NCBI GenBank assembly: GCA_963920595.1
Contig: OY986947.1
Location: 6,510,001 to 6,552,442 of the forward strand
Length of the DNA: 42,442 nucleotides
From: Eimeria praecox
Lineage: Eukaryota
Reading direction: 5' to 3'
A model generated the notes under the pieces. The model was given only the letters and a program-made list of their open reading frames with translations. It was not told where the DNA came from and searched no databases. Of the stretch, positions 1 through 42,442 are shown piece after piece (positions within the stretch are counted from its first letter, which is position 1; every line of letters begins with the position of its first letter). The position numbers and the translations under genes were made by a program.

Positions 1-174
1 GGCAATACTTTGAGGATGCGTTTTGGGGTGGGATCTGCATAGCGTCGGGATTGGATTCCAGGACATTTGATGAGTGGTTGTGCTGCATGGGGTAGCGTTG
101 GTGGGTCTGCGGCGGCGCTTTAGCGTAGGTGACCTGAGTAGGAAGCGCCTGACAGTAGCCTCCAGCGTGTTTGC

Positions 175-187
175 GTGTGTGTGTGTG
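175..187. repeat. Short (GT)n microsatellite in each array A unit, length-variable
   Basis: gcgtgtgtgtgtgtggag; one dinucleotide shorter near 6500 and 8612. Confidence 0.8.
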
Positions 188-207
188 GAGTATTCACTAT
201 TCACCAG

Positions 208-1992
208 GAGGTACGGCTTATATTGGGGTATAGCCCAAGCACGTGTTTATAAGGGATAGTGGGCAGTTTGGGTTTTTGGGTGCGCATGGAGTGGGCTGTG
301 GCGTCACCTTAGGGCTCTCTGTTTCGCAAGATGAGATTCCATTGTGTTGGGGATAAGCGTGCAATTGGAGTGCGATGCAGGTTGCATTGTTGCAGCCCGA
401 GAGGGAGGCGTGATTTGCAATTGAACAGGCTTGTGTGCATCAGAAAGTGCGTTTGTCCCTTAGATTGGGGAGGATGCGTGGTGTTCGTGGTGTGCGTATC
501 GGCATTTAGGATGTTGGGCGTTTCGCAGGGATTAGTTTGTCAGGGACTGTGTTGGGGTTGAGCGCTGTGAACAAGTTAAGCGACGGCGAGGGCTTGGTTG
601 CTGGTTAGCTTCGTGGGCATTTGCGTGAGCCATTGGATTGGGGTGGTTTGTTGCCTATGGACCTGTTTCAGAAAGTAAGGATTCTTGGGTGGGTGGAGTG
701 TGGCAGGTGGACGAGAATGTTCCTTGCGTTGTTTGCAAGGCAGGTCTGGATCTATGGTAGGGTAACCATGACCTGTTGAGGATGTTGACGGACGGCGACT
801 AGGAGGTGTTGGGCGCATGCGTTTCTATACAGCTGGCATGCAGCACACGTTTGGCTGGTTCCGGATGTAATGTTATGCATTAGGGGAGGGATGCGGAGCA
901 CTCGAGAAGCAGTGTTCGTTTGTTCACTCTAGCTCGTGTTGAATCATGATGGGCATGCAGGGTAGCTCGCCACCATGTCAATGCGTCAGAAAGTAGGCGT
1001 CGTGGCCAGCTTGCGCCCATATGCACTGCTGTATAAGTCAGCAGATATGGTCGAAACTTGTTTCGTGTTTTCGGGAATGAGTATGAATGCGTTATAAGGT
1101 GGAAAAGGAGGTGAAGCGTCAGGAGCAAGATATCGATACCGTAGGGCCCGAGTGGTAGTTTCATTGTTGAGGGTTCCGGTTTGCACCTGTGTGGGTTTTG
1201 TGGCAGGTGGATTGTGTGGAGGGGTAGCTGCTGGAGAGAGCATATATGGATGTTCCATGCCGCCGCGGAACAGAAAGTATGGAGAGGGTTGTGGGCATGC
1301 GATGGAACGGAGCGGTGTGTGTGACTGGGTGGCAAGAATCAGTATTTTGTTTATGCAGGGGGTGGTCAAATGAAGTGACTTAATTGTGGATGAGAGGGCG
1401 GGGGGGGTGGGGGGGAGGATTGGGACGTTGGTGGCGCATTTGGCAGCATTGGCTTGTTTCTTTAGTGTGGGGTATGGAGGTGTGAGCAAGGCGTGGGAGA
1501 AGGGGAGCATGGTGGTTCAATGCACCAGGAAGTATGTTTGGTTTTTCGTCTGCGTGGTTATTGGTAGGTGGGGTGGTCAGGTATTTGAGTATCGGGGCTT
1601 GAAGGAGGCGTGTTGCGGAGCACAATGTGTGTGTCTAATCAAGGGCTGCACCTGGTACCACCGAAAAAATGTTAGCTGGTGTTTTGTCGCTGAATTGTGT
1701 TATATGATTGAGGCCCAGGATAGGGTTTATTTGTGTGGCTTATGGAGGGGAGAGCTCGTACACTGTAGTCGTGAATGCGTTTAACATACCAGGAGGTACG
1801 GTCGACCTGCATTTGGCAAAAGAAGGAGTCGGGCGTTGACGCGGTGTAGACATTAGTGCATTTTACAGTTGGTTTGCAGGATTGCTGAAGTGTGGTTTGT
1901 GTGTGAGTGCAGTGAGCGTCAGGGATGATGCGTGTGAGATGGAGGGTACATGTCGTGCAATGTAGTCGTGAATGGGCTTCACTTATCAGGAA
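208..1992 (+). CDS. Eight candidate 3-nt microexons of array A unit 1 (E,K,K,K,K,E,E,E)
   Basis: cag|GAG|gtacgg 208-210; cag|AAA|gtgcgt 444-446; cag|AAA|gtaagg 672-674; cag|AAA|gtaggc 990-992; cag|AAA|gtatgg 1274-1276; cag|GAA|gtatgt 1529-1531; cag|GAG|gtacgg 1793-1795; cag|GAA|gtgcgt 1990-1992. Implied introns are ~195-330 nt. Confidence 0.75.
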
Positions 1993-4900
1993 GTGCGTAG
2001 GAGGTGGCGTGGTGAATGGTTGGAGGGCCTTGGTGGGCGTTATAGGGTAGTGGTGTTTCCAGTTAGGTTGCAAGGGCGGTGAAGGGTGGTTTGAATGGCA
2101 AAGGCGCCAGAGTGGCAATATTTTGAGGATGCGTTGTGGGGTGGGATCTGCATAGCGTCGGGAGTGGATACCAGGACATTTGATGAGTGGTTGTGCTGCA
2201 TGGGGTAGCGTTGGTGGGTCTGCGGCGGCGCTTTAGCGTAGGTGACCTGAGTAGGAAGCGCCTGACAGTAGCCTCCAGCGTGTTTGCGTGTGTGTGTGTG
2301 GAGTATTCACTATTCACCAGGAGGTACGGCTTATACTGGGGTATAGCCCAAGCACGTGTTTATAAGGGATAGTGGGCAGTTTGGGTTTTTGGGTGCGCAT
2401 GGAGTGGGTTGTGGCGTTACCCTAGGGCTCTCCGTTTCGCAAGATGAGATTCCATTGTGTTGGGGATAAGCGTGCAGTTGGAGTGCGATGCAGGTTGCAT
2501 TGTTGCAGCCCGAGAGGGAGGCGTGAGTTGCAATTGAACAGGCTTGTGTGCATCAGAAAGTCCGTTTGTCCCTTGGATTGGGGAGGATGCGTGGTGTGCT
2601 TATCGGCATTTGGGATGCTGGGCGTTTCGCAGGGATTAGTTTGTCAGGGACTGTGTTGGGGTTGCGCGCTGTGAACAAGTTAAGCGACGGCGAAGGCTTG
2701 GTTGCTGGTTAGCTTCGTGGGCATTTGTGTGAGCCATTGGATTGGGGTGGTTTGTTGCCTATGGACCTGTTTCAGAAAGTATGGATTCTTGGGTGGGTGG
2801 AGTGTGGCAGGCGGACGAGAATGTTCCTTGCGTTGTGTGCAAGGCGGGTCTGGATCTATGGTAGGGTAAGCATGGCCTGTTGAAGATGTTGACGGACGGC
2901 GTCTAGGAGGTGTTGGGCGCATGCGTTTCTATACATCTGGCATGCAGCACACTTTTGGCTGGTTCCGGATGTAATGTTATGCATTAGGAGAGGGATGCGG
3001 AGCACTCGAGAAGCAGTGTTCGTTTGTTCACTCTAGCTCGTGTTGAATCATGATGGGCATGCAGGGTAGCTCGCCACCATGTCAATGCGTCAGAAAGTAG
3101 GCGTCGTGGCCAGCTTGCGCCCATATGCACTGCTGTATAAGTCAGCAGATATGGTCCAAACTTGTTTCGTGTTTTCGGGAATGAGTATGAATGCGTTAGA
3201 AGGTGGAAAAGGAGGTGAAGCGTCAGGAGCAAGATATCGATACCGTAGGGCCCGAGTGGTAGTTTCATTGTTGAGGGTTCCGGTTTGCACCTGTGTGGGT
3301 TTTGTGGCAGGTGGATTGTGTGGAGGGGTAGCTGCTGCAGAGAGCATATATGGATGTTCCATGCCGCCGCGGAACAGAAAGTATGCAGAGGGTTGTGGGC
3401 TTGCGATGGAACGGAGCGGTGTGTGTGACTGGGTGGCAAGAATCAGTATTTTGTTTATGCAGGGGGTGGTCAAATGAAGTGACTTAATTGTGGATGAGAG
3501 GGAGGGGGGGGTGGGGGGGAGGATTGGGACGTTGGTGGCGCATTTGGCAGCATTGGCTTGTTTCTTTAGTGTGGGGTATGGAGGTGTGAGCAAGGCGTGG
3601 GAGAAGGGGAGCATGGTGGTTCAATGCACCAGGAAGTATGTTTGGTTTTTCGTCTGCGTGGTTATTGGTAGGTGGGGTGGTCAGGTATTTGAGTATCGGG
3701 GCTTGAAGGAGGCGTGTTGCGGAGCACAATGTGTGTGTCTAATCAAGGGCTGCACCTGGTACCACCGAAAAAATGTTAGCTGGTGTTTTGTCGCTGAATT
3801 GTGTTATATGATTGAGGCCCAGGATAGGGTTTATTTGTGTGGCTTATGGAGGGGAGAGCTCGTACACTGTAGTCGTGAATGCGTTTAACATACCAGGAGG
3901 TACGGTCGACCTGCATTTGGCAAAAGAAGGAGTCGGGCGTTGACGCGGTGTAGACATTAGTGCATTTTACAGTTGGTTTGCAGGATTGCTGAAGTGTGGT
4001 TTGTGTGTGAGTGCAGTGAGCGTCAGGGATGATGCGTGTGAGATGGAGGGTACATGTCGTGCAATGTAGTCGTGAATGGGCTTCACTTATCAGGAAGTGC
4101 GTAGGAGGTGGCGTGGTGAATGGTTGGAGGGCCTTGGTGGGCGTTATAGGGTAGTGGTGTTTCCAATTAGGTTGCAAGGGCGGTGAAGGGTGGTTTGAAT
4201 GGCAAAGGCGCCAGAGTGGCAATATTTTGAGGATGCGTTGTGGGGTGGGATCTGCATAGCGTCGGGAGTGGATACCAGGACATTTGATGAGTGGTTGTGC
4301 TGCATGGGGTAGCGTTGGTGGGTCTGCGGCGGCGCTTTAGCGTAGGTGACCTGAGTAGGAAGCGCCTGACAGTAGCCTCCAGCGTGTTTGCGTGTGTGTG
4401 TGTGGAGTATTCACTATTCACCAGGAGGTACGGCTTATACTGGGGTATAGCCCAAGCACGTGTTTATAAGGGATAGTGGGCAGTTTGGGTTTTTGGGTGC
4501 GCATGGAGTGGGTTGTGGCGTTACCCTAGGGCTCTCCGTTTCGCAAGATGAGATTCCATTGTGTTGGGGATAAGCGTGCAGTTGGAGTGCGATGCAGGTT
4601 GCATTGTTGCAGCCCGAGAGGGAGGCGTGATTTGCAATTGAACAGGCTTGTGTGCATCAGAAAGTGCGTTTGTCCCTTGGATTGGGGAGGATGCGTGGTG
4701 TGCTTATCGGCATTTGGGATGCTGGGCGTTTCGCAGGGATTAGTTTGTCAGGGACTGTGTTGGGGTTGAGCGCTGTGAACAAGTTAAGCGACGGCGAAGG
4801 CTTGGTTGCTGGTTAGCTTCGTGGGCATTTGTGTGAGCCATTGGATTGGGGTGGTTTGTTGCCTATGGACCTGTTTCAGAAAGTATGGATTCTTGGGTGG

Positions 4901-7900
4901 GTGGAGTGTGGCAGGCGGACGAGAATGTTCCTTGCGTTGTGTGCAAGGCGGGTCTGGATCTATGGTAGGGTAAGCATGGCCTGTTGAAGATGTTGACGGA
5001 CGGCGTCTAGGAGGTGTAGGGCGCATGCGTTTCTATACATCTGGCATGCAGCACACTTTTGGCTGGTTCCGGATGTAATGTTATGCATTAGGAGAGGGAT
5101 GCGGAGCACTCGAGAAGCAGTGTTCGTTTGTTCACTCTAGCTCGTGTTGAATCATGATGGGCATGCAGGGTAGCTCGCCACCATGTCAATGCGTCAGAAA
5201 GTAGGCGTCGTGGCCAGCTTGCGCCCATATGCACTGCTGTATAAGTCAGCAGATATGGTCCAAACTTGTTTCGTGTTTTCGGGAATGAGTATGAATGCGT
5301 TAGAAGGTGGAAAAGGAGGTGAAGCGTCAGGAGCAAGATATCGATACCGTAGGGCCCGAGTGGTAGTTTCATTGTTGAGGGTTCCGGTTTGCACCTGTGT
5401 GGGTTTTGTGGCAGGTGGATTGTGTGGAGGGGTAGCTGCTGCAGAGAGCATATATGGATGTTCCATGCCGCCGCGGAACAGAAAGTATGCAGAGGGTCGT
5501 GGGCTTGCGATGGAACGGAGCGGTGTCAGTGACTGGGTGGCAAGAATCAGTATTTTGTTTATGCAGGGGGTGGTCAAATGAAGTGACTTAATTGTGGATG
5601 AGAGGGAGGGGGGGGTGGGGGGGAGGATTGGGACGTTTGTGGTGCATTTGGCAGCATTGGTTTGTTTCTTTAATGTGGGGTATGGAGGTGTGAGCAAGGC
5701 GTGGGGAGAAGGGGAGCATGGTGGTTCAATGCACCAGGAAGTATGTTTGGTTTTTCGTCTGCGTGGTTATTGGTAGGTGGGGTGGTCAGGTATTTGAGTA
5801 GCGGGGCTTGAAGGAGGCGTGTTGTGGAGCACAATGTGTGTGTCTAATCAAGGGCTGCACCTGGTACCACCGAAAAAATGTTAGCTGGTGCTTTGTCGCT
5901 GAATTGTGATATATGATTGAGGCCCAGGAGAGGGTTTATTTGTGTGGCTTATGGAGGGGAGAGCTCGTACACTGTAGTCGTGAATGCGTTTAACATACCA
6001 GGAGGTACGGCCGACTTGCATTTGGCAAAAGAAGGAGGCGGGCGTTGACGTGGTGTAGACATTAGTGCATTTTACAGTTGGTTTGCAGGATTGCTGAAGT
6101 GTGGTTTGTGTGTGAGTGCAGTGAGCGTCAGGGATGATGCGTGTGAGATGGAGGGTACATGTCGTGCAATGTAGTCGTGAATGGGCTTCACTTATCAGGA
6201 AGTGCGTAGGAGGTGGCGTGGTGAATGGTTGGAGGGCCTTGGTGGGCGTTATAGGGTATTGGTGTTTCCAGTTAGTTTGCAAGGGCAGTGAGGGGGAGTT
6301 TGAATGGCAAAGGCGCCAGAGTGGCAATATTTTGAGGATGCGTTTTGGGGTGGGATCTGCATAGCGTCGGGATTGGATACCAGGACATTTGATGAGTGGT
6401 TGTGCTGCATGGGGTAGCGTTGGTGGGTCTGCGGCAGCGCTTTAGCGTAGGTGACCTGAGTAGGAAGCGCCTGACAGTAGCCTCCAGCGTGTTTGCGTGT
6501 GTGTGTGGAGTATTCACTATTCACCAGGAGGTACGGTTTATATTGGGGTATAGCCCAAGCACGTGTTTATAAGGGATAGTGGGCAGTTTGGGTTTTTGGG
6601 TGCGCATGGAGTGGGTTGTGGCGTCACCCTAGGGCTGTCCGCTTCGCAAGATGAGATTCCATTGTGTTGGGGATAAGCGTGCAGTTGGAGTGCGATGCAG
6701 GTTGCATTGTTGCAGCCCGAGAGGGAAGCATGAGTTGCAATTGAACAGGCTTGTGTGCATCAGGAAGTGCGTTTGTCCCTTAGATTGGGGAGGATGCGTG
6801 GTGTTCGTGGTGTGCGTATCGGCATTTGGGATGCTGGGCGTTTCGCAGGGATTAGTTTGTCAGGGACTTTGTTGGGGTTGAGCGCTGTGAACAAGTTAAG
6901 CGACGGCGAGGGCTTGGTTGCTGGTTAGCTTCGTGGGCATTTGCGTGAGCCATTGGATTGGGGTGGTTTGTTGCCTATGGACCTGTTTCAGAAAGTAAGG
7001 ATTCTTGGGTGGGTGGAGTGTGGCAGGTGGACGAGAATGTTCCTTGCGTTGTGTGCAAGGCGGGTCTGGATCTATGGTAGGGTAAGCATGGCCTGTTGAA
7101 GATGTTGACGGACGGCGTCTAGGAGCTGTTGGGCGCATGCGTTTCTATACATCTGGCATGCAGCACACGTTTGGCTGGTTCCGGATGTAATGTTATGCAT
7201 TATGGAAGGGATGCGGAGCACTCGAGAAGCAGTGTTCGTTTGTTCACTCTAGCTCGTGTTGAATCATGATGGGCATGCAGGGTAGCTCGCCACCATGTCA
7301 ATGCGTCAGAAAGTAGGCGTCGTGGCCAGCTTGCGCCCATATGCACTGCTGTATAAGTCAGCAGATATGGTCCAAACTTGTTTCGTGTTTTCGGGAATGA
7401 GTATGAATGCGTTAGAAGGTGGAAAAGGAGGTGAAGCGTCAGGAGCAAGATATCGATACCGTAGGGCCCGAGTGGTAGTTTCATTGTTGAGGGTTCCGGT
7501 TTGCACCTGTGTGGTTTTTGTGGCAGGTGGATTGTGTGGAGGGGTAGCTGCTGCAGAGAGCATATATGGATGTTCCATGCCGCCGCGGAACAGAAAGTAT
7601 GCAGAGGGTCGTGGGCTTGCGATGGAACGGAGCGGTGTCAGTGACTGGGTGGCAAGAATCAGTATTTTGTTTATGCAGGGGGTGGTCAAATGAAGTGACT
7701 TAATTGTGGATGAGAGGGAGGGGGGGGTGGGGGGGAGGATTGGGACGTTTGTGGTGCATTTGGCAGCATTGGTTTGTTTCTTTAATGTGGGGTATGGAGG
7801 TGTGAGCAAGGCGTGGGGAGAAGGGGAGCATGGTGGTTCAATGCACCAGGAAGTATGTTTGGTTTTTCGTCTGCGTGGTTATTGGTAGGTGGGGTGGTCA

Positions 7901-10900
7901 GGTATTTGAGTAGCGGGGCTTGAAGGAGGCGTGTTGTGGAGCACAATGTGTGTGTCTAATCAAGGGCTGCACCTGGTACCACCGAAAAAATGTTAGCTGG
8001 TGCTTTGTCGCTGAATTGTGATATATGATTGAGGCCCAGGAGAGGGTTTATTTGTGTGGCTTATGGAGGGGAGAGCTCGTACACTGTAGTCGTGAATGCG
8101 TTTAACATACCAGGAGGTACGGCCGACTTGCATTTGGCAAAAGAAGGAGGCGGGCGTTGACGTGGTGTAGACATTAGTGCATTTTACAGTTGGTTTGCAG
8201 GATTGCTGAAGTGTGGTTTGTGTGTGAGTGCAGTGAGCGTCAGGGATGATGCGTGTGAGATGGAGGGTACATGTCGTGCAATGTAGTCGTGAATGGGCTT
8301 CACTTATCAGGAAGTGCGTAGGAGGTGGCGTGGTGAATGGTTGGAGGGCCTTGGTGGGCGTTATAGGGTATTGGTGTTTCCAGTTAGTTTGCAAGGGCAG
8401 TGAGGGGGAGTTTGAATGGCAAAGGCGCCAGAGTGGCAATATTTTGAGGATGCGTTTTGGGGTGGGATCTGCATAGCGTCGGGATTGGATACCAGGACAT
8501 TTGATGAGTGGTTGTGCTGCATGGGGTAGCGTTGGTGGGTCTGCGGCAGCGCTTTAGCGTAGGTGACCTGAGTAGGAAGCGCCTGACAGTAGCCTCCAGC
8601 GTGTTTGCGTGTGTGTGTGGAGTATTCACTATTCACCAGGAGGTACGGTTTATATTGGGGTATAGCCCAAGCACGTGTTTATAAGGGATAGTGGGCAGTT
8701 TGGGTTTTTGGGTGCGCATGGAGTGGGTTGTGGCGTCACCCTAGGGCTGTCCGCTTCGCAAGATGAGATTCCATTGTGTTGGGGATAAGCGTGCAGTTGG
8801 AGTGCGATGCAGGTTGCATTGTTGCAGCCCGAGAGGGAAGCATGAGTTGCAATTGAACAGGCTTGTGTGCATCAGGAAGTGCGTTTGTCCCTTAGATTGG
8901 GGAGGATGCGTGGTGTTCGTGGTGTGCGTATCGGCATTTGGGATGCTGGGCGTTTCGCAGGGATTAGTTTGTCAGGGACTTTGTTGGGGTTGAGCGCTGT
9001 GAACAAGTTAAGCGACGGCGAGGGCTTGGTTGCTGGTTAGCTTCGTGGGCATTTGCGTGAGCCATTGGATTGGGGTGGTTTGTTGCCTATGGACCTGTTT
9101 CAGAAAGTAAGGATTCTTGGGTGGGTGGAGTGTGGCAGGTGGACGAGAATGTTCCTTGCGTTGTGTGCAAGGCGGGTCTGGATCTATGGTAGGGTAAGCA
9201 TGGCCTGTTGAAGATGTTGACGGACGGCGTCTAGGAGCTGTTGGGCGCATGCGTTTCTATACATCTGGCATGCAGCACACGTTTGGCTGGTTCCGGATGT
9301 AATGTTATGCATTATGGAAGGGATGCGGAGCACTCGAGAAGCAGTGTTCGTTTGTTCACTCTAGCTCGTGTTGAATCATGATGGGCATGCAGGGTAGCTC
9401 GCCACCATGTCAATGCGTCAGAAAGTAGGCGTCGTGGCCAGCTTGCGCCCATATGCACTGCTGTATAAGTCAGCAGATATGGTCCAAACTTGTTTCGTGT
9501 TTTCGGGAATGAGTATGAATGCGTTAGAAGGTGGAAAAGGAGGTGAAGCGTCAGGAGCAAGATATCGATACCGTAGGGCCCGAGTGGTAGTTTCATTGTT
9601 GAGGGTTCCGGTTTGCACCTGTGTGGTTTTTGTGGCAGGTGGATTGTGTGGAGGGGTAGCTGCTGCAAAGAGCATATATGGATGTACCATGCCGCCGCGG
9701 AACAGAAAGTATGCAGAGGGTCGTGGGCTTGCGATGGAACGGAGCGGTGTCTGTGACTGGGTGGCAAGAATCAGTATTTTGTTTAGGCAGGGGGTGGTCA
9801 AGTGAAGTGACTTAATTGTGGATGAGAGGGAGGGGGGGGTGGGGGGGAGGATTGGGACGTTGGTGGCGCATTTGGCAGCATTGGCTTGTTTCTTTAGTGT
9901 GGGGTATGGAGGTGTGAGCAAGGCGTGGGAGAAGGGGAGCATGGTGGTTCAATGCACCAGGAAGTATGTTTGGTTTTTCGTCTGCGTGGTTATTGGTAGG
10001 TGGGGTGGTCAGGTATTTGAGTAGCGGGGCTTGAAGGAGGCGTGTTGCGGAGCACAATGTGTGTGTCTAATCAAGGGCTGCACCTGGTACCACCGAAAAA
10101 ATGTTAGCTGGTGTTTTGTCGCTGAATTGTGATATATGATTGAGGCCCAGGAGAGGGTTTATTTGTGTGGCTTATGGAGGGGAGAGCTCGTACACTGTAG
10201 TCGTGAATGCGTTTAACATACCAGGAGGTACGGCCGACTTGCATTTGGCAAAAGAAGGAGTCGGGCGTTGACGCGGTGTAGACATTAGTGCATTTTACAG
10301 TTGGTCTGCAGGATTGCTGAAGTGTGGTTTGTGTGTGAGTGCAGTGAGCGTCAGGGATGATGCGTGTGAGATGGAGGGTACATGTCGTGCAATGTAGTCG
10401 TGAATGGGCTTCACTTATCAGGAAGTGCGTAGGAGGTGGCGTGGTGAATGGTTGGAGGGCCTTGGTGGGCGTTATAGGGTAGTGGTGTTTCCAGTTAGGT
10501 TGCAAGGGCGGTGAAGGGTGGTTTGAATGGCAAAGGCGCCAGAGTGGCAATATTTTGAGGATGCGTTGTGGGGTGGGATCTGCATAGCGTCGGGAGTGGA
10601 TACCAGGACATTTGATGAGTGGTTGTGCTGCATGGGGTAGCGTTGGTGGGTCTGCGGCGGCGCTTTAGCGTAGGTGACCTGAGTAGGAAGCGCCTGACAG
10701 TAGCCTCCAGCGTGTTTGCGTGTGTGTGTGTGGAGTATTCACTATTCACCAGGAGGTACGGCTTATACTGGGGTATAGCCCAAGCACGTGTTTATAAGGG
10801 ATAGTGGGCAGTTTGGGTTTTTGGGTGCGCATGGAGTGGGTTGTGGCGTCACCCTAGGGCTGTCCGCTTCGCAAGATGAGATTCCATTGTGTTGGGGATA

Positions 10901-13900
10901 AGCGTGCAGTTGGAGTGCGATGCAGGTTGCATTGTTGCAGCCCGAGAGGGAAGCATGAGTTGCAATTGAACAGGCTTGTGTGCATCAGGAAGTGCGTTTG
11001 TCCCTTAGATTGGGGAGGATGCGTGGTGTTCGTGGTGTGCGTATCGGCATTTGGGATGCTGGGCGTTTCGCAGGGATTAGTTTGTCAGGGACTTTGTTGG
11101 GGTTGAGCGCTGTGAACAAGTTAAGCGACGGCGAGGGCTTGGTTGCTGGTTAGCTTCGTGGGCATTTGCGTGAGCCATTGGATTGGGGTGGTTTGTTGCC
11201 TATGGACCTGTTTCAGAAAGTAAGGATTCTTGGGTGGGTGGAGTGTGGCAGGTGGACGAGAATGTTCCTTGCGTTGTGTGCAAGGCGGGTCTGGATCTAT
11301 GGTAGGGTAAGCATGGCCTGTTGAAGATGTTGACGGACGGCGTCTAGGAGCTGTTGGGCGCATGCGTTTCTATACATCTGGCATGCAGCACACGTTTGGC
11401 TGGTTCCGGATGTAATGTTATGCATTATGGAAGGGATGCGGAGCACTCGAGAAGCAGTGTTCGTTTGTTCACTCTAGCTCGTGTTGAATCATGATGGGCA
11501 TGCAGGGTAGCTCGCCACCATGTCAATGCGTCAGAAAGTAGGCGTCGTGGCCAGCTTGCGCCCATATGCACTGCTGTATAAGTCAGCAGATATGGTCCAA
11601 ACTTGTTTCGTGTTTTCGGGAATGAGTATGAATGCGTTAGAAGGTGGAAAAGGAGGTGAAGCGTCAGGAGCAAGATATCGATACCGTAGGGCCCGAGTGG
11701 TAGTTTCATTGTTGAGGGTTCCGGTTTGCACCTGTGTGGGTTTTGTGGCAGGTGGATTGTGTGGAGGGGTAGCTGCTGCAAAGAGCATATATGGATGTTC
11801 CATGCCGCCGCGGAACAGAAAGTATGCAGAGGGTCGTGGGCTTGCGATGGAACGGAGCGGTGTCTGTGACTGGGTGGCAAGAATCAGTATTTTGTTTAGG
11901 CAGGGGGTGGTCAAGTGAAGTGACTTAATTGTGGATGAGAGGGAGGGGGGGGTGGGGGGGAGGATTGGGACGTTGGTGGCGCATTTGGCAGCATTGGCTT
12001 GTTTCTTTAGTGTGGGGTATGGAGGTGTGAGCAAGGCGTGGGAGAAGGGGAGCATGGTGGTTCAATGCACCAGGAAGTATGTTTGGTTTTTCGTCTGCGT
12101 GGTTATTGGTAGGTGGGGTGGTCAGGTATTTGAGTAGCGGGGCTTGAAGGAGGCGTGTTGCGGAGCACAATGTGTGTGTCTAATCAAGGGCTGCACCTGG
12201 TACCACCGAAAAAATGTTAGCTGGTGTTTTGTCGCTGAATTGTGATATATGATTGAGGCCCAGGAGAGGGTTTATTTGTGTGGCTTATGGAGGGGAGAGC
12301 TCGTACACTGTAGTCGTGAATGCGTTTAACATACCAGGAGGTACGGCCGACTTGCATTTGGCAAAAGAAGGAGTCGGGCGTTGACGCGGTGTAGACATTA
12401 GTGCATTTTACAGTTGGTCTGCAGGATTGCTGAAGTGTGGTTTGTGTGTGAGTGCAGTGAGCGTCAGGGATGATGCGTGTGAGATGGAGGGTACATGTCG
12501 TGCAATGTAGTCGTGAATGGGCTTCACTTATCAGGAAGTGCGTAGGAGGTGGCGTGGTGAATGGTTGGAGGGCCTTGGTGGGCGTTATAGGGTAGTGGTG
12601 TTTCCAGTTAGGTTGCAAGGGCGGTGAAGGGTGGTTTGAATGGCAAAGGCGCCAGAGTGGCAATATTTTGAGGATGCGTTGTGGGGTGGGATCTGCATAG
12701 CGTCGGGAGTGGATACCAGGACATTTGATGAGTGGTTGTGCTGCATGGGGTAGCGTTGGTGGGTCTGCGGCGGCGCTTTAGCGTAGGTGAGCTGAGTAGG
12801 AAGCGCCTGACAGTAGCCTCCAGCGTGTTTGCGTGTGTGTGTGTGGAGTATTCACTATTCACCAGGAGGTACGGCTTATACTGGGGTATAGCCCAAGCAC
12901 GTGTTTATAAGGGATAGTGGGCAGTTTGGGTTTTTGGGTGCGCATGGAGTGGGTTGTGGCGTCACCCTAGGGCTGTCCGCTTCGCAAGATGAGATTCCAT
13001 TGTGTTGGGGATAAGCGTGCAGTTGGAGTGCGATGCAGGTTGCATTGTTGCAGCCCGAGAGGGAAGCATGAGTTGCAATTGAACAGGCTTGTGTGCATCA
13101 GGAAGTGCGTTTGTCCCTTAGATTGGGGAGGATGCGTGGTGTTCGTGGTGTGCGTATCGGCATTTGGGATGCTGGGCGTTTCGCAGGGATTAGTTTGTCA
13201 GGGACTTTGTTGGGGTTGAGCGCTGTGAACAAGTTAAGCGACGGCGAGGGCTTGGTTGCTGGTTAGCTTCGTGGGCATTTGCGTGAGCCATTGGATTGGG
13301 GTGGTTTGTTGCCTATGGACCTGTTTCAGAAAGTAAGGATTCTTGGGTGGGTGGAGTGTGGCAGGTGGACGAGAATGTTCCTTGCGTTGTGTGCAAGGCG
13401 GGTCTGGATCTATGGTAGGGTAAGCATGGCCTGTTGAAGATGTTGACGGACGGCGTCTAGGAGCTGTTGGGCGCATGCGTTTCTATACATCTGGCATGCA
13501 GCACACGTTTGGCTGGTTCCGGATGTAATGTTATGCATTATGGAAGGGATGCGGAGCACTCGAGAAGCAGTGTTCGTTTGTTCACTCTAGCTCGTGTTGA
13601 ATCATGATGGGCATGCAGGGTAGCTCGCCACCATGTCAATGCGTCAGAAAGTAGGCGTCGTGGCCAGCTTGCGCCCATATGCACTGCTGTATAAGTCAGC
13701 AGATATGGTCCAAACTTGTTTCGTGTTTTCGGGAATGAGTATGAATGCGTTAGAAGGTGGAAAAGGAGGTGAAGCGTCAGGAGCAAGATATCGATACCGT
13801 AGGGCCCGAGTGGTAGTTTCATTGTTGAGGGTTCCGGTTTGCACCTGTGTGGTTTTTGTGGCAGGTGGATTGTGTGGAGGGGTAGCTGCTGCAAAGAGCA

Positions 13901-16900
13901 TATATGGATGTTCCATGCCGCCGCGGAACAGAAAGTATGCAGAGGGTCGTGGGCTTGCGATGGAACGGAGCGGTGTCTGTGACTGGGTGGCAAGAATCAG
14001 TATTTTGTTTAGGCAGGGGGTGGTCAAGTGAAGTGACTTAATTGTGGATGAGAGGGAGGGGGGGGTGGGGGGGAGGATTGGGACGTTGGTGGCGCATTTG
14101 GCAGCATTGGCTTGTTTCTTTAGTGTGGGGTATGGAGGTGTGAGCAAGGCGTGGGAGAAGGGGAGCATGGTGGTTCAATGCACCAGGAAGTATGTTTGGT
14201 TTTTCGTCTGCGTGGTTATTGGTAGGTGGGGTGGTCAGGTATTTGAGTAGCGGGGCTTGAAGGAGGCGTGTTGCGGAGCACAATGTGTGTGTCTAATCAA
14301 GGGCTGCACCTGGTACCACCGAAAAAATGTTAGCTGGTGTTTTGTCGCTGAATTGTGATATATGATTGAGGCCCAGGAGAGGGTTTATTTGTGTGGCTTA
14401 TGGAGGGGAGAGCTCGTACACTGTAGTCGTGAATGCGTTTAACATACCAGGAGGTACGGCCGACTTGCATTTGGCAAAAGAAGGAGTCGGGCGTTGACGC
14501 GGTGTAGACATTAGTGCATTTTACAGTTGGTCTGCAGGATTGCTGAAGTGTGGTTTGTGTGTGAGTGCAGTGAGCGTCAGGGATGATGCGTGTGAGATGG
14601 AGGGTACATGTCGTGCAATGTAGTCGTGAATGGGCTTCACTTATCAGGAAGTGCGTAGGAGGTGGCGTGGTGAATGGTTGGAGGGCCTTGGTGGGCGTTA
14701 TAGGGTAGTGGTGTTTCCAGTTAGGTTGCAAGGGCGGTGAAGGGTGGTTTGAATGGCAAAGGCGCCAGAGTGGCAATATTTTGAGGATGCGTTTTGGGGT
14801 GGGATCTGCATAGCGTCGGGAGTGGATACCAGGACATTTAATGAGTGCTTGTGCTGCATGGGGTAGCGTTGGTGGGTCTGCGGCGGCGCTTTAGCGTAGG
14901 TGAGCTGAGTAGGAAGCGCCTGACAGTAGCCTCCAGCGTGTTTGCGTGTGTGTGTGTGGAGTATTCACTATTCACCAGGAGGTACGGCTTATACTGGGGT
15001 ATAGCCCAAGCACGTGTTTATAAGGGATAGTGGGCAGTTTGGGTTTTTGGGTGCGCATGGAGTGGGTTGTGGCGTCACCCTAGGGCTCTCCGTTTCGCAA
15101 GATGAGATTCCATTGTGTTGGGGATAAGCGTGCAGTTGGAGTGCGATGCAGGTTGCATTGTTGCAGCCCGAGAGGGAGGCGTGAGTTGCAATTGAACAGG
15201 CTTGTGTGCATCAGAAAGTGCGTTTGTCCCTTAGATTGGGGAGGATGCGTGGTGTGCTTATCGGCATTTGGGATGCTGGGCGTTTCGCAGGGATTAGTTT
15301 GTCAGGGACTTTGTTGGGGTTGAGCGCTGTGAACAAGTTAAGCGACGGCGAGGGCTTGGTTGCTGGTTAGCTTCGTGGGCATTTGCGTGAGCCATTGGAT
15401 TGGGGTGGTTTGTTGCCTATGAACCTGTTTCAGAAAGTAAGGATTCTTGGGTGGGTGGAGTGTGGCAGGTGGACGAGAATGTTCCTTGCGTTGTGTGCAA
15501 GGCGGGTCTGGATCTATGGTAGGCTAAGCATGGCCTGTTGAGGATGTTGACGGACGGCGTCTAGGAGGTGTTGGGCGCATGCGTTTCTATACAGCTGGCA
15601 TGCAGCACACGTTTGGCTGGTTCCGGATGTAATGTTATGCATTAGGGAAGGGATGCGGAGCACTCGAGAAGCAGTGTTCGTTTGTTCACTCTAGCTCGTG
15701 TTGAATCATGATGGGCATGCAGGGTAGCTCGCCACCATGTCAATGCGTCAGAAAGTAGGCGTCGTGGCCAGCTTGCGCCCATATGCACTGCTGTATAAGC
15801 CAGCAGATATGGTCGAAACTTGTTTCGTGTTTTCGGGAATGAGTATGAATGCGTTATAAGGTGGAAAAGGAGGTGAAGCGTCAGGAGCAAGATATCGATA
15901 CCGTAGGGCCCGAGTGCTAGTTTCATTGTTGAGGGTTCCGGTTTGCACCTGTGTGGGTTTTGTGGCAGGTGGATTGTGTGGAGGGGTAGCTGCTGCAAAG
16001 AGCATATATGGATGTTCCATGCCGCCGCGGAACAGAAAGTATGCAGAGGGTTGTGGGCTTGCGATGGAACAGAGCGGTGTGTGTGACTGGGTGGCAAGAA
16101 TCAGTATTTTGTTTATGCAGGGGGTGGTCAAATGAAGTGACTTAATTGTGGATGAGAGGGAGGGGGGGGTGGGGGGGAGGATTGGGACGTTGGTGGTGCA
16201 TTTGGCAGCATTGGTTTGTTTCTTTAGTGTGGGGTATGGAGGTGTGACCAATGCGTGGGAGAAGGGGAGCATGGTGGTTCAATGCACCAGGAAGTATGTT
16301 TGGTTTTTCGTCTGCGTGGTTATTGGTAGGTGGGGTGGTCAGGTATTTGAGTATCGGGGCTTGAAGGAGGCGTGTTGCGGAGCACAATGTGTGTGTCTAA
16401 TCAAGGGCTGCACCTGGTACCACCGAAAAAATGTTAGCTGGTGTTTTGTCGCTGAATTGTGTTATATGATTGAGGCCCAGGATAGGGTTTATTTGTGTGG
16501 CTTATGGAGGGGAGAGCTCGTACACTGTAGTCGTGAATGCGTTTAACATACCAGGAGGTACGGTCGACCTGCATTTGGCAAAAGAAGGAGTCGGGCGTTG
16601 ACGCGGTGTAGACATTAGTGCATTTTACAGTTGGTTTGCAGGATTGCTGAAGTGTGGTTTGTGTGTGAGTGCAGTGAGCGTCAGGGATGATGCGTGTGAG
16701 ATGGAGGGTACATGTCGTGCAATGTAGTCGTGAATGGGCTTCACTTATCAGGAAGTGCGTAGGAGGTGGCGTGGTGAATGGTTGGAGGGCCTTGGTGGGC
16801 GTTATAGGGTAGTGGTGTTTCCAGTTAGGTTGCAAGGGCGGTGAAGGGTGGTTTGAATGGCAAAGGCGCCAGAGTGGCAATATTTTGAGGATGCGTTGTG

Positions 16901-19900
16901 GGGTGGGATCTGCATAGCGTCGGGAGTGGATACCAGGACATTTGATGAGTGGTTGTGCTGCATGGGGTAGCGTTGGTGGGTCTGCGGCGGCGCTTTAGCG
17001 TAGGTGACCTGAGTAGGAAGCGCCTGACAGTAGCCTCCAGCGTGTTTGCGTGTGTGTGTGTGGAGTATTCACTATTCACCAGGAGGTACGGCTTATACTG
17101 GGGTATAGCCCAAGCACGTGTTTATAAGGGATAGTGGGCAGTTTGGGTTTTTGGGTGCGCATGGAGTGGGTTGTGGCGTTACCCTAGGGCTCTCCGTTTC
17201 GCAAGATGAGATTCCATTGTGTTGGGGATAAGCGTGCAGTTGGAGTGCGATGCAGGTTGCATTGTTGCAGCCCGAGAGGGAGGCGTGATTTGCAATTGAA
17301 CAGGCTTGTGTGCATCAGAAAGTGCGTTTGTCCCTTAGATTGGGGAGGATGCGTGGTGTGCTTATCGGCATTTGGGATGTTGGGCGTTTCGCAGGGATTA
17401 GTTTGTCAGGGACTGTGTTGGGGTTGAGCGCTGTGAACAAGTTAAGCGACGGCGAAGGCTTGGTTGCTGGTTAGCTTCGTGGGCATTTGTGTGAGCCATT
17501 GGATTGGGGTGGTTTGTTGCCTATGGACCTGTTTCAGAAAGTATGGATTCTTGGGTGGGTGGAGTGTGGCAGGTGGACGAGAATGTTCCTTGCGTTGTGT
17601 GCAAGGCGGGTCTGGATCTATGGTAGGCTAAGCATGGCCTGTTGAGGATGTTGACGGACGGCGTCTAGGAGGTGTTGGGCGCATGCGTTTCTATACAGCT
17701 GAGGTGTAGGGCGCATGCGTTTCTATACAGCTGGCATGCAGCACACTTTTTGCTGGTTCCGGATGTAATGTTATGCATTAGGGGAGGGATGCGGAGCACT
17801 CGAGAAGCAGTGTTCGTTGTTCACTCTAGCTCGTGTTGAATCATGATGGGCATGCAGGGTAGCTCGCCACCATGTCAATGCGTCAGAAAGTAGGCGTCGT
17901 GGCCAGCTTGCGCCCATATGCACTGCTGTATAAGTCAGCAGATATGGTCGAAACTTGTTTCGTGTTTTCGGGAATGAGTATGAATGCGTTATAAGGTGGA
18001 AAAGGAGGTGAAGCGTCAGGAGCAAGATATCGATACCGTAGGGCTCGAGTGCTAGTTTCATTGTTGAGGGTTCCGGTTTGCACCTGTGTGGGTTTTGTGG
18101 CAGGTGGATTGTGTGGAGGGGTAGCTGCTGCAGAGAGCATATATGGATGTTCCATGCCGCCGCGGAACAGAAAGTATGCAGAGGGTCGTGGGCTTGCGAT
18201 GGAACGGAGCGGTGTCAGTGACTGGGTGGCAAGAATCAGTATTTTGTTTATGCAGGGGGTGGTCAAATGAAGTGACTTAATTGTGGATGAGAGGGAGGGG
18301 GGGGTGGGGGGGAGGATTGGGACGTTTGTGGTGCATTTGGCAGCATTGGTTTGTTTCTTTAGTGTGGGGTATGGAGGTGTGAGCAAGGCGTGGGAGAAGG
18401 GGAGCATGGTGGTTCAATGCACCAGGAAGTATGTTTGGTTTTTCGTCTGCGTGGTTATTGGTAGGTGGGGTGGTCAGGTATTTGAGTAGCGGGGCTTGAA
18501 GGAGGCGTGTTGCGGAGCACAATGTGTGTGTCTAATCAAGGGCTGCACCTGGTACCACCGAAAAAATGTTAGCTGGTGTTTTGTCGCTGAATTGTGATAT
18601 ATGATTGAGGCCCAGGAGAGGGTTTATTTGTGTGGCTTATGGAGGGGAGAGCTCGTACACTGTAGTCGTGAATGCGTTTAACATACCAGGAGGTACGGTC
18701 GACCTGCATTTGGCAAAAGAAGGAGTCGGGCGTTGACGCGGTGTAGACATTAGTGCATTTTACAGTTGGTCTGCAGGATTGCTGAAGTGTGGTTTGTGTG
18801 TGAGTGCAGTGAGCGTCAGGGATGATGCGTGTGAGATGGAGGGTACATGTCGTGCAATGTAGTCGTGAATGGGCTTCACTTATCAGGAAGTGCGTAGCAG
18901 GTGGCGTGGTGAATGGTTGGAGGGCCTTGGTGGGCGTTATAGGGTAGTGGTGTTTCCAGTTAGGTTGCAAGGGCGGTGAAGGGTGGTTTGAATGGCAAAG
19001 GCGCCAGAGTGGCAATATTTTGAGGATGCGTTTTGGGGTGGGATCTGCATAGCGTCGGGAGTGGCTACCAGGACATTTGATGAGTGGTTGTGCTGCATGG
19101 GGTAGCGTTGGTGGGTCTGCGGCGGCGCTTTAGCGTAGGTGACCTGAGTAGGAAGCGCCTGACAGTAGCCTCCAGCGTGTTTGCGTGTGTGTGTGTGGAG
19201 TATTCACTATTCACCAGGAGGTACGGCTTATACTGGGGTATAGCCCAAGCACGTGTTTATAAGGGATAGTGGGCAGTTTGGGTTTTTGGGTGCGCATGGA
19301 GTGGGTTGTGGCGTCACCCTAGGGCTCTCCGTTTCGCAAGATGAGATTCCGTTGTGTTGGGGATAAGCGTGCAGTTGGAGTGCGATGCAGGTTGCATTGT
19401 TGCAGCCCGAGAGGGAGGCGTGAGTTGCAATTGAACAGGCTTGTGTGCATCAGAAAGTGCGTTTGTCCCTTAGATTGGGGAGGATGCGTGGTGTGCTTAT
19501 CGGCATTTGGGATGCTGGGCGTTTCGCAGGGATTAGTTTGTCAGGGACTTTGTTGGGGTTGAGCGCTGTGAACAAGTTAAGCGACGGCGAGGGCGTGGTT
19601 GCTGGTTAGCTTCGTGGGCATTTGCGTGAGCCATTGGATTGGGGTGGTTTGTTGCCTATGGACCTGTTTCAGAAAGTAAGGATTCTTGGGTGGGTGGAGT
19701 GTGGCAGGTGGACGAGAATGTTCCTTGCGTTGTGTGCAAGGCGGGTCTGGATCTATGGTAGGGTAAGCATGGCCTGTTGAAGATGTTGACGGACAGCGTC
19801 TAGGAGCTGTTGGGCGCATGCGTTTCTATACATCTGGCATGCAGCACACGTTTGGCTGGTTCCGGATGTAATGTTATGCATTATGGAAGGGATGCGGAGC

Positions 19901-22900
19901 ACTCGAGAAGCAGTGTTCGTTTGTTCACTCTAGCTCGTGTTGAATCATGATGGGCATGCAGGGTAGCTCGCCACCATGTCAATGCGTCAGAAAGTAGGCG
20001 TCGTGGCCAGCTTGCGCCCATATGCGCTGCTGTGTAAGCCAGCAGATATGGTCGAAACTTGTTTCGTGTTTTCGGGAATGAGTATGAATGCGTTATAAGG
20101 TGGAAAAGGAGGTGAAGCGTCAGGAGCAAGATATCGATAACGTAGGGCCCGAGTGCTAGTTTCATTGTTGAGGGTTCCGGTTTGCACCTGTGTGGTTTTT
20201 GTGGCAGGTGGATTGTGTGGAGGGGTAGCTGCTGCAAAGAGCATATATGGATGTACCATGCCGCCGCGGAACAGAAAGTATGCAGAGGGTCGTGGGCTTG
20301 CGATGGAACGGAGCGGTGTCTGTGACTGGGTGGCAAGAATCAGTATTTTGTTTATGCAGGGGGTGGTCAAATGAAGTGACTTAATTGTGGTTGAGAGGGC
20401 GGGGGGGTGGGGGGGAGGATTGGGACGTTGGTGGCGCATTTGGCAGCATTGGCTTGTTTCTTTAGTGTGGGGTATGGAGGTGTGAGCAAGGCGTGGGAGA
20501 AGGGGAGCATGGTGGTTCAATGCACCAGGAAGTATGTTTGGTTTTTCGTCTGCGTGGTTATTGGTAGGTGGGGTGGTCAGGTATTTGAGTAGCGGGGCTT
20601 GAAGGAGGCGTGTTGTGGAGCACAATGTGTGTGTCTAATCAAGGGCTGCACCTGGTACCACCGAAAAAATGTTAGCTGGTGTTTTGTCGCTGAATTGTGA
20701 TATATGATTGAGGCCCAGGAGAGGGTTTATTTGTGTGGCTTATGGAGAGGAGAGCTCGTACACTGTAGTCGTGAATGCGTTTAACATACCAGGAGGTACG
20801 GCCGACTTGCATTTGGCAAAAGAAGGAGTCGGCCGTTGACGTGGTGTAGACATTAGTGCATTTTACAGTTGGTCTGCAGGATTGCTGAAGTGTGGTTTGT
20901 GTGTGAGTGCAGTGAGCGTCAGGGATGATGCGTGTGAGATGGAGGGTACATGTCGTGCAATGTAGTCGTGAATGGGCTTCACTTATCAGGACGTGCGTAG
21001 CAGGTGGCGTGGCGAATGGCTGGAGGGCCTTGGTGGGCGTTATAGGGTAGTGGTGTTTCCAGTTAGGCTGTAAGGGCGGTGAAGGGTGGTTTGAATGGCA
21101 AAGGCGCCAGAGTGGCAATATTTTGAGGATGCGTTTTGGGGTGGGATCTGCATAGCGTCTGGAGCGGATTCCAGGACATTTGATGAGTGCTTATGCTGCA
21201 TGTGGATTTGGGTGGGTGTTGGCTACGGATATGTGGGTGGTTGATGAATGTGGCGGAAGCAAACGGAATGTGGACAATACGGCAACATACGGCGGAAGGT
21301 GCCGAGTTTCCAGTTGTACTGGCTGGACGAAGGTTGACTGCATTTGATGTGTGCAAGACATGTGATGTTCGTGGGCGCGCATTATTTCTGAAAGCCGTGA
21401 AGTTTGTATCACCTGTAGCCGCCGTTAGACACTAATTAAAAAAAAAGTCGCAAATAAGCTGGAACTGCGTTTGCCGTACAATCATTATGCCTCGCGGGAA
21501 TAGCAGGTGCCACTCGCGCTTACGTCTGTGCACCGGTAATGCCACGAAACAGCAAGTACGCTTGAATTCCCGACGACTCACGCCTGCTCAAATTCGGACT
21601 GTAGTGGACGGATGGAGGGCTTCTAGTTGGCACGAGTTAATGCCGGCATGAGCCTAGAGTAATAGGTGAGAGGAACGGCAACGGACCAGGCGAAGCTTGC
21701 TTACGTGAGTGCAAACGCGATGCATAGCACGGCTGCGAAGCATGTGGGCATTGTATTTGCGCCGCATGAATCCGACAGCATCGCTGACTTGGAAACGTTC
21801 TTTACACAGCGGTTTTGACGGTCTCTGAGTGCGCAAGGCTGCAGGGCACGAGCTCCTCCAGCATGTGGAAGTAATGCTTACAGCGAATTAGCAAGGCGTT
21901 AGGGTCTATCAAGGTCATGCAGGACGCGCCGCAGCTGGCAGATTGGACATGTTCGGCGAGCTGGCGATTCGTACTAGTTTCGACCAGCCGGCGTTGCTCT
22001 TCGTCGTTGTATGGCGTCCGTGTAATTGGAAAATGGCGTTAGGCAACGAGTTCAGAAAAAACAAGTGGGACCGAAAAGGGGTGCCAAGGACGAGCAACGG
22101 ATTGGGGAATTGGTGCGCGGCGATGCGCCGAAACAGACCAGTTTGAAGAGATTTGAGGCAAGCATTAGTGAGTTGGGGAGTACTTGGCTGTTTGTCGAAA
22201 CGCGCAACTGAGAACCGCATGGCTTCAGGCTTTCGATGAATCAGGGGGTATGTGTTGCCTGCAAAATGACTACAAAAGCGATTGCCTGTCACGCGATGCT
22301 TTAGATTAGGTGTGCTGTTATGCGAAAGCCTGTTTGGTCATGAAGTATGAAAGAAGCCCCCTACGCGTACAGGCGTATTAGGCGCACTTACTTGAAGATT
22401 GTGCTTTTTTGGACACCGCTTCCACCGTCAATCGGGCGGCAGTTTGTGCAAACTAACGACTTTCGGTTAACAAATGAGGGTGCAGTTACTCCGGTCTGGA
22501 GGCGGGATGCGAATCAGGATGCTTTATCGCTCGCAGGCATGCGCATGTATTAGAAGCATCCCATGCACTTCACTGCCGTAATAGTGCTTGCTTGAAACGT
22601 TATATACTTTCAAGAGAGTCTGAAATGGCCCAGGCTGTGCGTTTGATCTCTGGAAATGAATTACACTCGCAGAGTGCAGACTGACAGCAGCCTACCGATA
22701 TGCTTGCACCCTTGTCCCTTAGAGCAATTTGAGCATATCAATACGTTTCTCCGCGCACCTGACACGACGCCTGTTTATTTGTCAAATTCGAAAAATGGCA
22801 CTTGCTTCCTGCGGCCTCCGATCTTCATTCAGTTATTTGATAATGACATGCGTTCAGGTCACAAAGGTATAGTTTAGGAGTGAAGGGCTGGACGAGGTTG

Positions 22901-41916: not shown

Positions 41917-42442
41917 GTGCGTGCTGTTCTTGTTGATGGGGTGTGTGCAGACACCTGGCGAGCACTATTTGGGCGGCGGCGTCTTGAAGGAGCAGCCAGC
42001 GCATGCCTGTTGCCGGTTCCGTCATGTATTTAGTATCGCCTGCGGGATGCTTGATTCACTTATTGCAGCACATTACAGGCATGGTGCATCAGTGGGCGTT
42101 GAATGCTGTCCCTGTGGGCAGAGGGGAACTGTACGTCTTTCAGCATAAGCACACTGCTAGCTGCAACAACCGAATATGCAACTAATGCGTGCGGCGAAGA
42201 ACGACTAGCGTTGCATTGTGCGCTTGATGCGGCAGGCATTTGCTTGCGTCGCAGAGTGTGAAAGGTTAGAAGTGGAATTGCGGTATGCGGCAAGGCGGTT
42301 TGCTGCACTTTGCTAAGCTTAATGTGGCTTTTGCTCGGGAGGTGCACATATGATTTATGAAATACTACTACGTAAGATAGTGGCTGTGTGGATCTGGGGC
42401 TCTTTGTGTTGTGTTGAAGGCTAGGCGTTCGCGGGCTTGGAG

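Follow-up and report, generated by a model that had tools for sequence, protein, structure and literature searches.

Among the described systems that can be compared with the DNA considered here, the micro-exon genes (MEGs) of flatworms have exons of 3-81 bp and introns of up to 5 kb (PMC10526429), and exons as short as 3 nt have been reported from animals, plants and a dinoflagellate (PMC12584245, PMC8042270). Here we consider a stretch of 42,442 nucleotides (42 kb) from contig OY986947.1 of Eimeria praecox (assembly GCA_963920595.1, positions 6,510,001 to 6,552,442 of the forward strand), hereafter the window, which contains two tandem arrays, A and B, and a non-repeated (unique) stretch between them. 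Array A appears to be a higher-order tandem repeat with eight back-to-back pairs of 3' and 5' splice signals in every 2.1-kb unit, every pair framing a purine triplet, and we tentatively propose, with a confidence somewhat short of an even chance, that these triplets are one-codon exons of a long plus-strand transcript.

Two further kinds of described system have to be kept in mind. At recursive splice sites, also known as ratchet points, a 3' splice signal adjoins a 5' splice signal within long non-coding sequence, which allows the stepwise removal of that sequence. On the protein side, helices of the ER/K type are characterized by Glu and Lys (or Arg) in blocks of about four, such that opposite charges lie four residues apart, and sequences of the E4K4 type form stable single helices.

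Splice-like sites in array A and outside it

Every unit of array A contains, on the plus strand, eight sites of the form CAG|RAR|GT (R, purine; Y and N below, pyrimidine and any base). The stricter CAGRARGTR is matched by 78 of the 80 sites and has no match on the minus strand, the two mismatches being a GTC donor at site 2 of unit 2 and the GAC that forms the last triplet of the array (20990-20992). The upstream CAG and the downstream GT are present at all 80 sites, on one strand, as would be expected at the borders of microexons. Over the ten units, the triplets at sites 1, 3, 4, 5, 6 and 7 do not vary (GAG, AAA, AAA, AAA, GAA and GAG, respectively), whereas site 2 reads AAA in six units and GAA in four, and site 8 reads GAA in nine units and GAC in one. 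The order GAG AAA AAA AAA AAA GAA GAG GAA, which a first-pass annotation of this DNA had ascribed to every unit, is found exactly in five of the ten (units 1, 2, 3, 8 and 9); site 2 departs from it in four units, and the final triplet of the array departs from it as well. The excess of RAR sites is not due to chance: a single unit contains 7 matches to CAGRARGTR as compared to 0.14 expected, a count that was reached in none of 300 dinucleotide shuffles. Each unit also contains 3-5 extra CAG-NNN-GT sites (with the triplets GGG, TTG, CGT, AGG and TTA), none of which has a GTRNG donor.

The likeness of the array A sites to splice junctions extends beyond their borders and, as a matter of anatomy, is well supported by the sequence. 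The AG-free gap before the eight CAGs measures 15-42 bases, as compared to a median of 9 bases for the 156 other AG gaps in the unit (Mann-Whitney p = 5e-4), and the fraction of G in the last 10 bases before the CAG is 0.17, as compared to 0.37 in the whole unit; that is, the sites are preceded by the AG-free, G-poor stretch that belongs to the surroundings of 3' splice sites. On the other side of the triplet, a GTRNG donor is found, among the CAG-NNN-GT sites of unit 3, at the RAR sites only (all eight of these and none of the five others; Fisher p = 7.8e-4). When the copies of the unit are compared, the AG, the GT and the G at donor position +5 are constant in all 40 columns, the background rate of variation being 8.0% (P = 0.036). 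The spacers between the sites are 194-328 bases long and mutually dissimilar within a unit, the sole similarity among the eight being that spacers 6 and 7 agree at 78% over 51 bases at their 3' ends. Since the spacers are unrelated, the sites are not simply copies of one sub-repeat. The cores themselves can be sorted into types: 14 bases are common to sites 1 and 7, sites 2 and 8 agree at 13 of 14, and CAGAAAGTA is found at each of sites 3, 4 and 5.

The motif is not confined to array A. On the plus strand of positions 21323-28300, CAGNNNGTR occurs 14 times as compared to 4.07 expected, and CAGNNNGTRYG 9 times as compared to 0.64, neither count being reached in any of 300 shuffles. The minus strand of the same segment shows no enrichment (2 occurrences vs 3.74 expected), nor are spacers of 0, 1, 2 or 6 bases enriched there. 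When the number of bases k in AG-N(k)-GTRYG is varied from 0 to 30, 12 occurrences are found at k = 3, as compared to 0-8 at the other 30 values. The form without a spacer, CAGGTR, in which the AG is directly followed by GT as at a recursive splice site, is enriched neither in the array A unit (2 vs 2.56 expected) nor in the unique stretch (2 vs 3.22); the spacer is three bases. The CAG-NNN-GTRNG sites of the unique stretch lie at 21550, 22242, 22631, 22924, 23177, 24510, 24514, 25939, 26150 and 26418, and the triplets there are CAA, GGG, GCT, GCG, GCA, CCA, TGC, CTT, AAA and AGA, which, AAA and AGA excepted, are not of the RAR kind.

Array B, the units of which are 87-99.6% alike and the sequence of which is unrelated to that of array A, contains seven YAG-NNN-GT sites per unit, with the AG and the GT kept in all six units compared. 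None of the 28 columns formed by these positions is variable, as compared to a background rate of 15.9% (P = 0.0077), and the AG together with the GT is kept in all units at each of the seven sites with a three-base spacer, as compared to 45 of the 78 that have a spacer of another length. Such changes as are seen preserve the motif, namely, an interchange of CAG and TAG at two of the seven sites and of GTA and GTG at one. Since AG-NNN-GTRYG is enriched in the flank of array A and recurs in array B, the whole 42 kb may be read as one long plus-strand unit dotted with one-codon exon-like sites. The first-pass annotation had treated the triplets of array A as scattered one-codon exons; their interpretation as one-codon exon-like sites is supported by the zone of AG exclusion, the quality of the donors, the invariance of the AG, the GT and the G at +5, and the presence of the same motif in the unrelated flank.

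Several observations concern the sites and spacers in their own right. Across 20 sites of array A, the unique stretch and array B, the acceptor side has C or T at position -5 in 19, G at -4 in 12, A at -2 in 12 and never G at -1, and the donor side has C at +4 in 13. The spacers of array A show no excess of RNA structure, the fold z-scores of the eight ranging from -1.18 to +1.77. Runs of G were considered as possible intronic enhancers and rejected, GGG being not enriched (84 occurrences vs 110 expected from composition). None of the 40 variant positions listed among the copies in public run X1 falls on the CAG, the triplet, the GT, +3 or +5, a difference from the approximately 1.5 expected that is not significant. 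Finally, contigs from runs X1, X2, X4 and X6 that cover unit 8 contain no joint at the triplet borders; these runs are not recorded as RNA, so that the result has no bearing on splicing.

Possible one-codon exons and competing explanations

If the triplets of array A are indeed one-codon exons, the following course of events can be envisaged. The region would be transcribed from the plus strand, and the spacers would be removed as introns one by one, because an exon of this size offers too little room for the factors of its two splice sites to be bound simultaneously. Three bases would be left at each step, such that array A would contribute a purine-only tract to the RNA. As to origin, the existence of core types and the failure of the spacers to align with each other point to an old tandem array of introns, each with its triplet, in which the splice cores were kept and the bodies of the introns drifted, and from which a block of eight sites was later, and recently, amplified as a unit.

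A number of points weigh against this proposal. Three-base exons are hard to splice. No Pfam match was obtained for any of 69 open frames of at least 70 amino acids on both strands of one array A unit, the unique stretch and the first array B units, and no ordinary exons flanking the sites were recognised in the 42 kb. Such exons may lie outside the window, as both of its ends fall inside arrays. In the absence of any conventional exon, however, the transcript would consist of three-base exons only over 42 kb, and no described precedent was found for a transcript made of three-base exons alone. Further, the conservation test in array A is weak, the units being 97-99.8% alike, and when all ten core positions per site are taken, 3 of 80 columns vary (P = 0.11); the test in array B involves seven sites only, four of which have poor donors (GTGAAA, GTATTG, GTGGCT and GTCTAG). 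The abundance of the repeat has to be reckoned with, too. A comparison of one unit with public contigs gave 11,442 pieces in X1, with a summed word depth of 3.3e5-1.6e6 per bin that is uncalibrated against single-copy DNA. Among these pieces, 2,306 are 90-95% alike and 176 are under 90%, that is, more diverged than any pair of units 1-9 in the window; in X2, 907 contig pieces fall on one array A unit. The depth and the variant pieces in X1 thus suggest a repeat family that goes far beyond the ten units in both size and divergence, as is the case in satellite DNA, and a family of such a size would be easier to reconcile with satellite DNA than with the body of a protein-coding gene.

This leads to the possibility that array A is a satellite-like repeat that is not spliced at the sites, with the cores either kept at the DNA level, for example, as a protein-binding box such as certain centromeric satellites possess, or simply passed down from an ancestral monomer and homogenised. 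In its favour are the nearly identical 2.1-kb tandem units, the very high summed depth with thousands of variant contig pieces in X1 and 907 in X2, the existence of core types, as expected of diverged monomers, and the position of both window ends within arrays, which is usual for contigs from repeat-rich regions; the 42 kb also contain no genes, and searches of the window against Rfam at the gathering threshold and for tRNAs gave no matches. We nonetheless regard this explanation, the main rival, as less probable than splicing at the sites. A DNA box does not account for the strand-specific, AG-free and G-poor stretch before the CAG, nor for the coupling of RAR triplets to GTRNG donors, and an unspliced satellite leaves unexplained why the tolerated changes preserve YAG and GTR and why the same three-base-spaced motif occurs both outside the repeats and in a second repeat of unrelated sequence. 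The recurrence in unrelated unique DNA likewise speaks against a chance pattern in G+T-rich repeat DNA that the repeat has multiplied tenfold. It is true that the ten units are copies of each other, so that the 80 sites amount to eight independent events only; yet the count in a single unit, which no shuffle reached, and the enrichment of the three-base spacer alone render this explanation very improbable.

All the evidence for splice sites applies equally if, as the first-pass annotation had suggested, the 80 triplets are joined in phase 0 and translated as a charged single alpha-helix of the (E4K4) type, the number of units setting the length of a rigid spacer at 8 residues per unit. Conceptual joining in this phase yields 43 Glu, 36 Lys and 1 Asp, grouped in blocks similar to E4K4. 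In array A, the triplets at the eight good-donor sites are all RAR and, accordingly, encode Glu or Lys only, whereas triplets of other composition occupy sites of the same kind in the unique stretch and in array B, which argues that RAR is not forced by the splice signals; moreover, the order of the triplets produces blocks of four, and the common variant, AAA to GAA (4 of 10 units), remains within the Glu/Lys repertoire. However, the joined tract, being devoid of T, is open in all three phases. The claim that such a pattern, drawn from sites scattered over 2 kb, is hard to explain by chance holds for the number of sites and much less for the E4K4 order, which, taken alone and read cyclically, has a probability of 8/256 = 0.031 for random Glu and Lys and of 8/70 = 0.114 for four of each. 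All eight triplets are at most one transition away from GAA, and the adjacent Lys sites 3-5 belong to one core type, so that local duplication of an intron together with its AAA can give a run of Lys without selection for salt bridges. Variation in the triplet columns is no lower than the background (2 of 24 in array A vs 8.0%; 4 of 21 in array B vs 15.9%), and the triplet changes in both arrays would, if read in phase 0, all be residue replacements (Lys to Glu, Glu to Asp, Lys to Gly, Ser to Gly and Leu to Arg); the constraint thus appears to act on the splice signals and not on the triplets. There is neither a start nor a signal sequence, domain or ordinary exon for such a protein in the 42 kb, and the read depth suggests many more units than would be plausible for one. 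Translation into an E4K4 protein is therefore possible and, judging from the sequence, somewhat disfavoured, to the extent that we consider it improbable. The fuller proposal, in which a 2.1-kb repeat that resembles a satellite would make up the coding part of a gene, and unequal crossing-over lengthens or shortens a rigid E4K4 helix by 8 residues (about 1.2 nm) per unit, such that a protein ruler is built through at least about 80 consecutive three-base splicing steps, strikes us as more doubtful still.

Layout of the window

Array A consists of ten units arranged head-to-tail, as in satellite DNA, with unit starts at 200, 2313, 4417, 6520, 8632, 10745, 12858, 14971, 17075 and 19210; the tandem order is backed by a contig joint that connects 17074 to 14971 in runs X1 and X4. 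Units 1-9 are 97.3-99.8% alike in pairwise comparison, and unit 10 is less similar, at 94-95% to each of these. The plus strand of the array is rich in G+T (37% G and 15% C, a GC skew of approximately +0.43). As the window begins within array A and ends within array B, both arrays are probably longer than seen here. The features are collected in Table 1.

Table 1. Arrays, unique stretch and the eight sites of the first complete array A unit (window coordinates; the position of each triplet is given in parentheses)
Feature	Position	Strand	Remarks
Array A, partial unit (1-199) and ten units	1..21322	+	Unit lengths 2103-2135 bp
Non-repeated stretch	21323..28097	+	Ten CAG-NNN-GTRNG sites
Array B, at least 6 units of 2032-2249 bp	28098..42442	+	Seven YAG-NNN-GT sites per unit
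Site 1, unit 1: CAG, GAG (208-210), GTA	205..213	+	Recurs in 10 of 10 units
Site 2, unit 1: CAG, AAA (444-446), GTG	441..449	+	GAA in units 4-7; donor GTCCGT in unit 2
Site 3, unit 1: CAG, AAA (672-674), GTA	669..677	+	
Site 4, unit 1: CAG, AAA (990-992), GTA	987..995	+	
Site 5, unit 1: CAG, AAA (1274-1276), GTA	1271..1279	+	
Site 6, unit 1: CAG, GAA (1529-1531), GTA	1526..1534	+	
Site 7, unit 1: CAG, GAG (1793-1795), GTA	1790..1798	+	14-base core in common with site 1
Site 8, unit 1: CAG, GAA (1990-1992), GTG	1987..1995	+	GAC in unit 10 (20990-20992)

The units carry several further marks. The length of unit 9 (2135 bp) is due to a tandem duplication of 32 bases at 17669-17733 (Tandem Repeats Finder, 2.0 copies, 96% matches). 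One long run of G with G-quadruplex-type spacing is present in each array A unit, at 1397-1420 and in the same place in others (for example, 3500-3528), and a second motif of the G-quadruplex type lies at approximately 2366-2393. The hexamer ATGCGT occurs 7 times per array A unit as compared to 0.9 expected (for example, in 2313-4416), often as GGATGCGT, and this excess may be a remnant of an earlier sub-repeat. XhoI has a single site in each array A unit (901, 3005, ... 19902), and the whole window lacks a BamHI site. Most units of array B contain one TTTAGGG and two HindIII sites. The hexamer GCATGC is enriched about 2-fold, and the ratio of observed to expected CpG is 0.80-0.95 throughout, which argues against a heavily CpG-methylated genome.

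An X2 contig has a loose end at 16964, in unit 8, where the array passes into the unique flank that is also present in the window, and an X1 contig has one at 15122, also in unit 8, where the array passes into a different flank. The two loose ends indicate that one or more additional junctions of the repeat exist in that genome, and the different flank may mark a second locus or the opposite end of the array. A metagenome scan with a 19-base core returned 8 loci, none of which is related to the window by blastn. The idea that one of the arrays is the Toxoplasma B1 repeat was discarded, as two primers for it had 0 matches with up to 3 mismatches allowed.

Significance and relation to known systems

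If the sites are used, array A, with at least 80 of them, and with more in the flank and in array B, would be among the longest known runs of one-codon exons. It would then offer a natural test case for the action of the spliceosome on exons that are smaller than the footprint of its own components, and would illustrate that a sequence classified as satellite by repeat finders can be a spliced transcription unit. Were the tract also translated, a stiff helical spacer would be lengthened or shortened as the 2.1-kb repeat changes in copy number. If, on the other hand, the sites are not used, the persistence of a strand-specific 11-base motif in two repeats of unrelated sequence, as well as in the intervening DNA, still calls for an explanation. 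Neither a tandem array of dozens of one-codon exons nor this repeat was described in the titles and abstracts that the literature searches returned.

With the MEGs of Schistosoma and other flatworms, array A shares the strings of very short exons, multiples of three in length, with far longer introns in between. The MEGs differ in that they have ordinary first and last exons, encode secreted proteins and are spliced in a documented manner, that their exons are mostly longer than one codon, and that they are not built of near-identical 2.1-kb tandem units; in array A, which is known here from sequence, every candidate exon is exactly three bases long, and no ordinary exon was found. The three-base exons reported from animals, plants and a dinoflagellate are isolated ones within ordinary genes, whereas in array A they would come in runs of 80 within a tandem repeat. 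Like ratchet points, the array A sites pair 3' and 5' splice signals back to back; unlike array A, where the spacer always comprises three bases, ratchet points have no bases between the AG and the GT, so that nothing is left behind.

A likeness to the ER/K single alpha-helix domains of myosin VI and X, caldesmon, INCENP and the KER region of CAF-1 would consist in the phase-0 reading, which is made of Glu and Lys only, bar one Asp, in blocks of approximately four. The known domains of this type, however, are encoded by ordinary continuous exons and belong to demonstrated proteins, whereas here 80 separate triplets are joined conceptually. Finally, array A resembles higher-order-repeat satellite DNA in its near-identical tandem units, which are composed of older, diverged sub-units that keep a short core, and in its very high read abundance; it is distinguished from such DNA by a core that has the anatomy of a splice junction on one strand and that occurs also outside the repeat.

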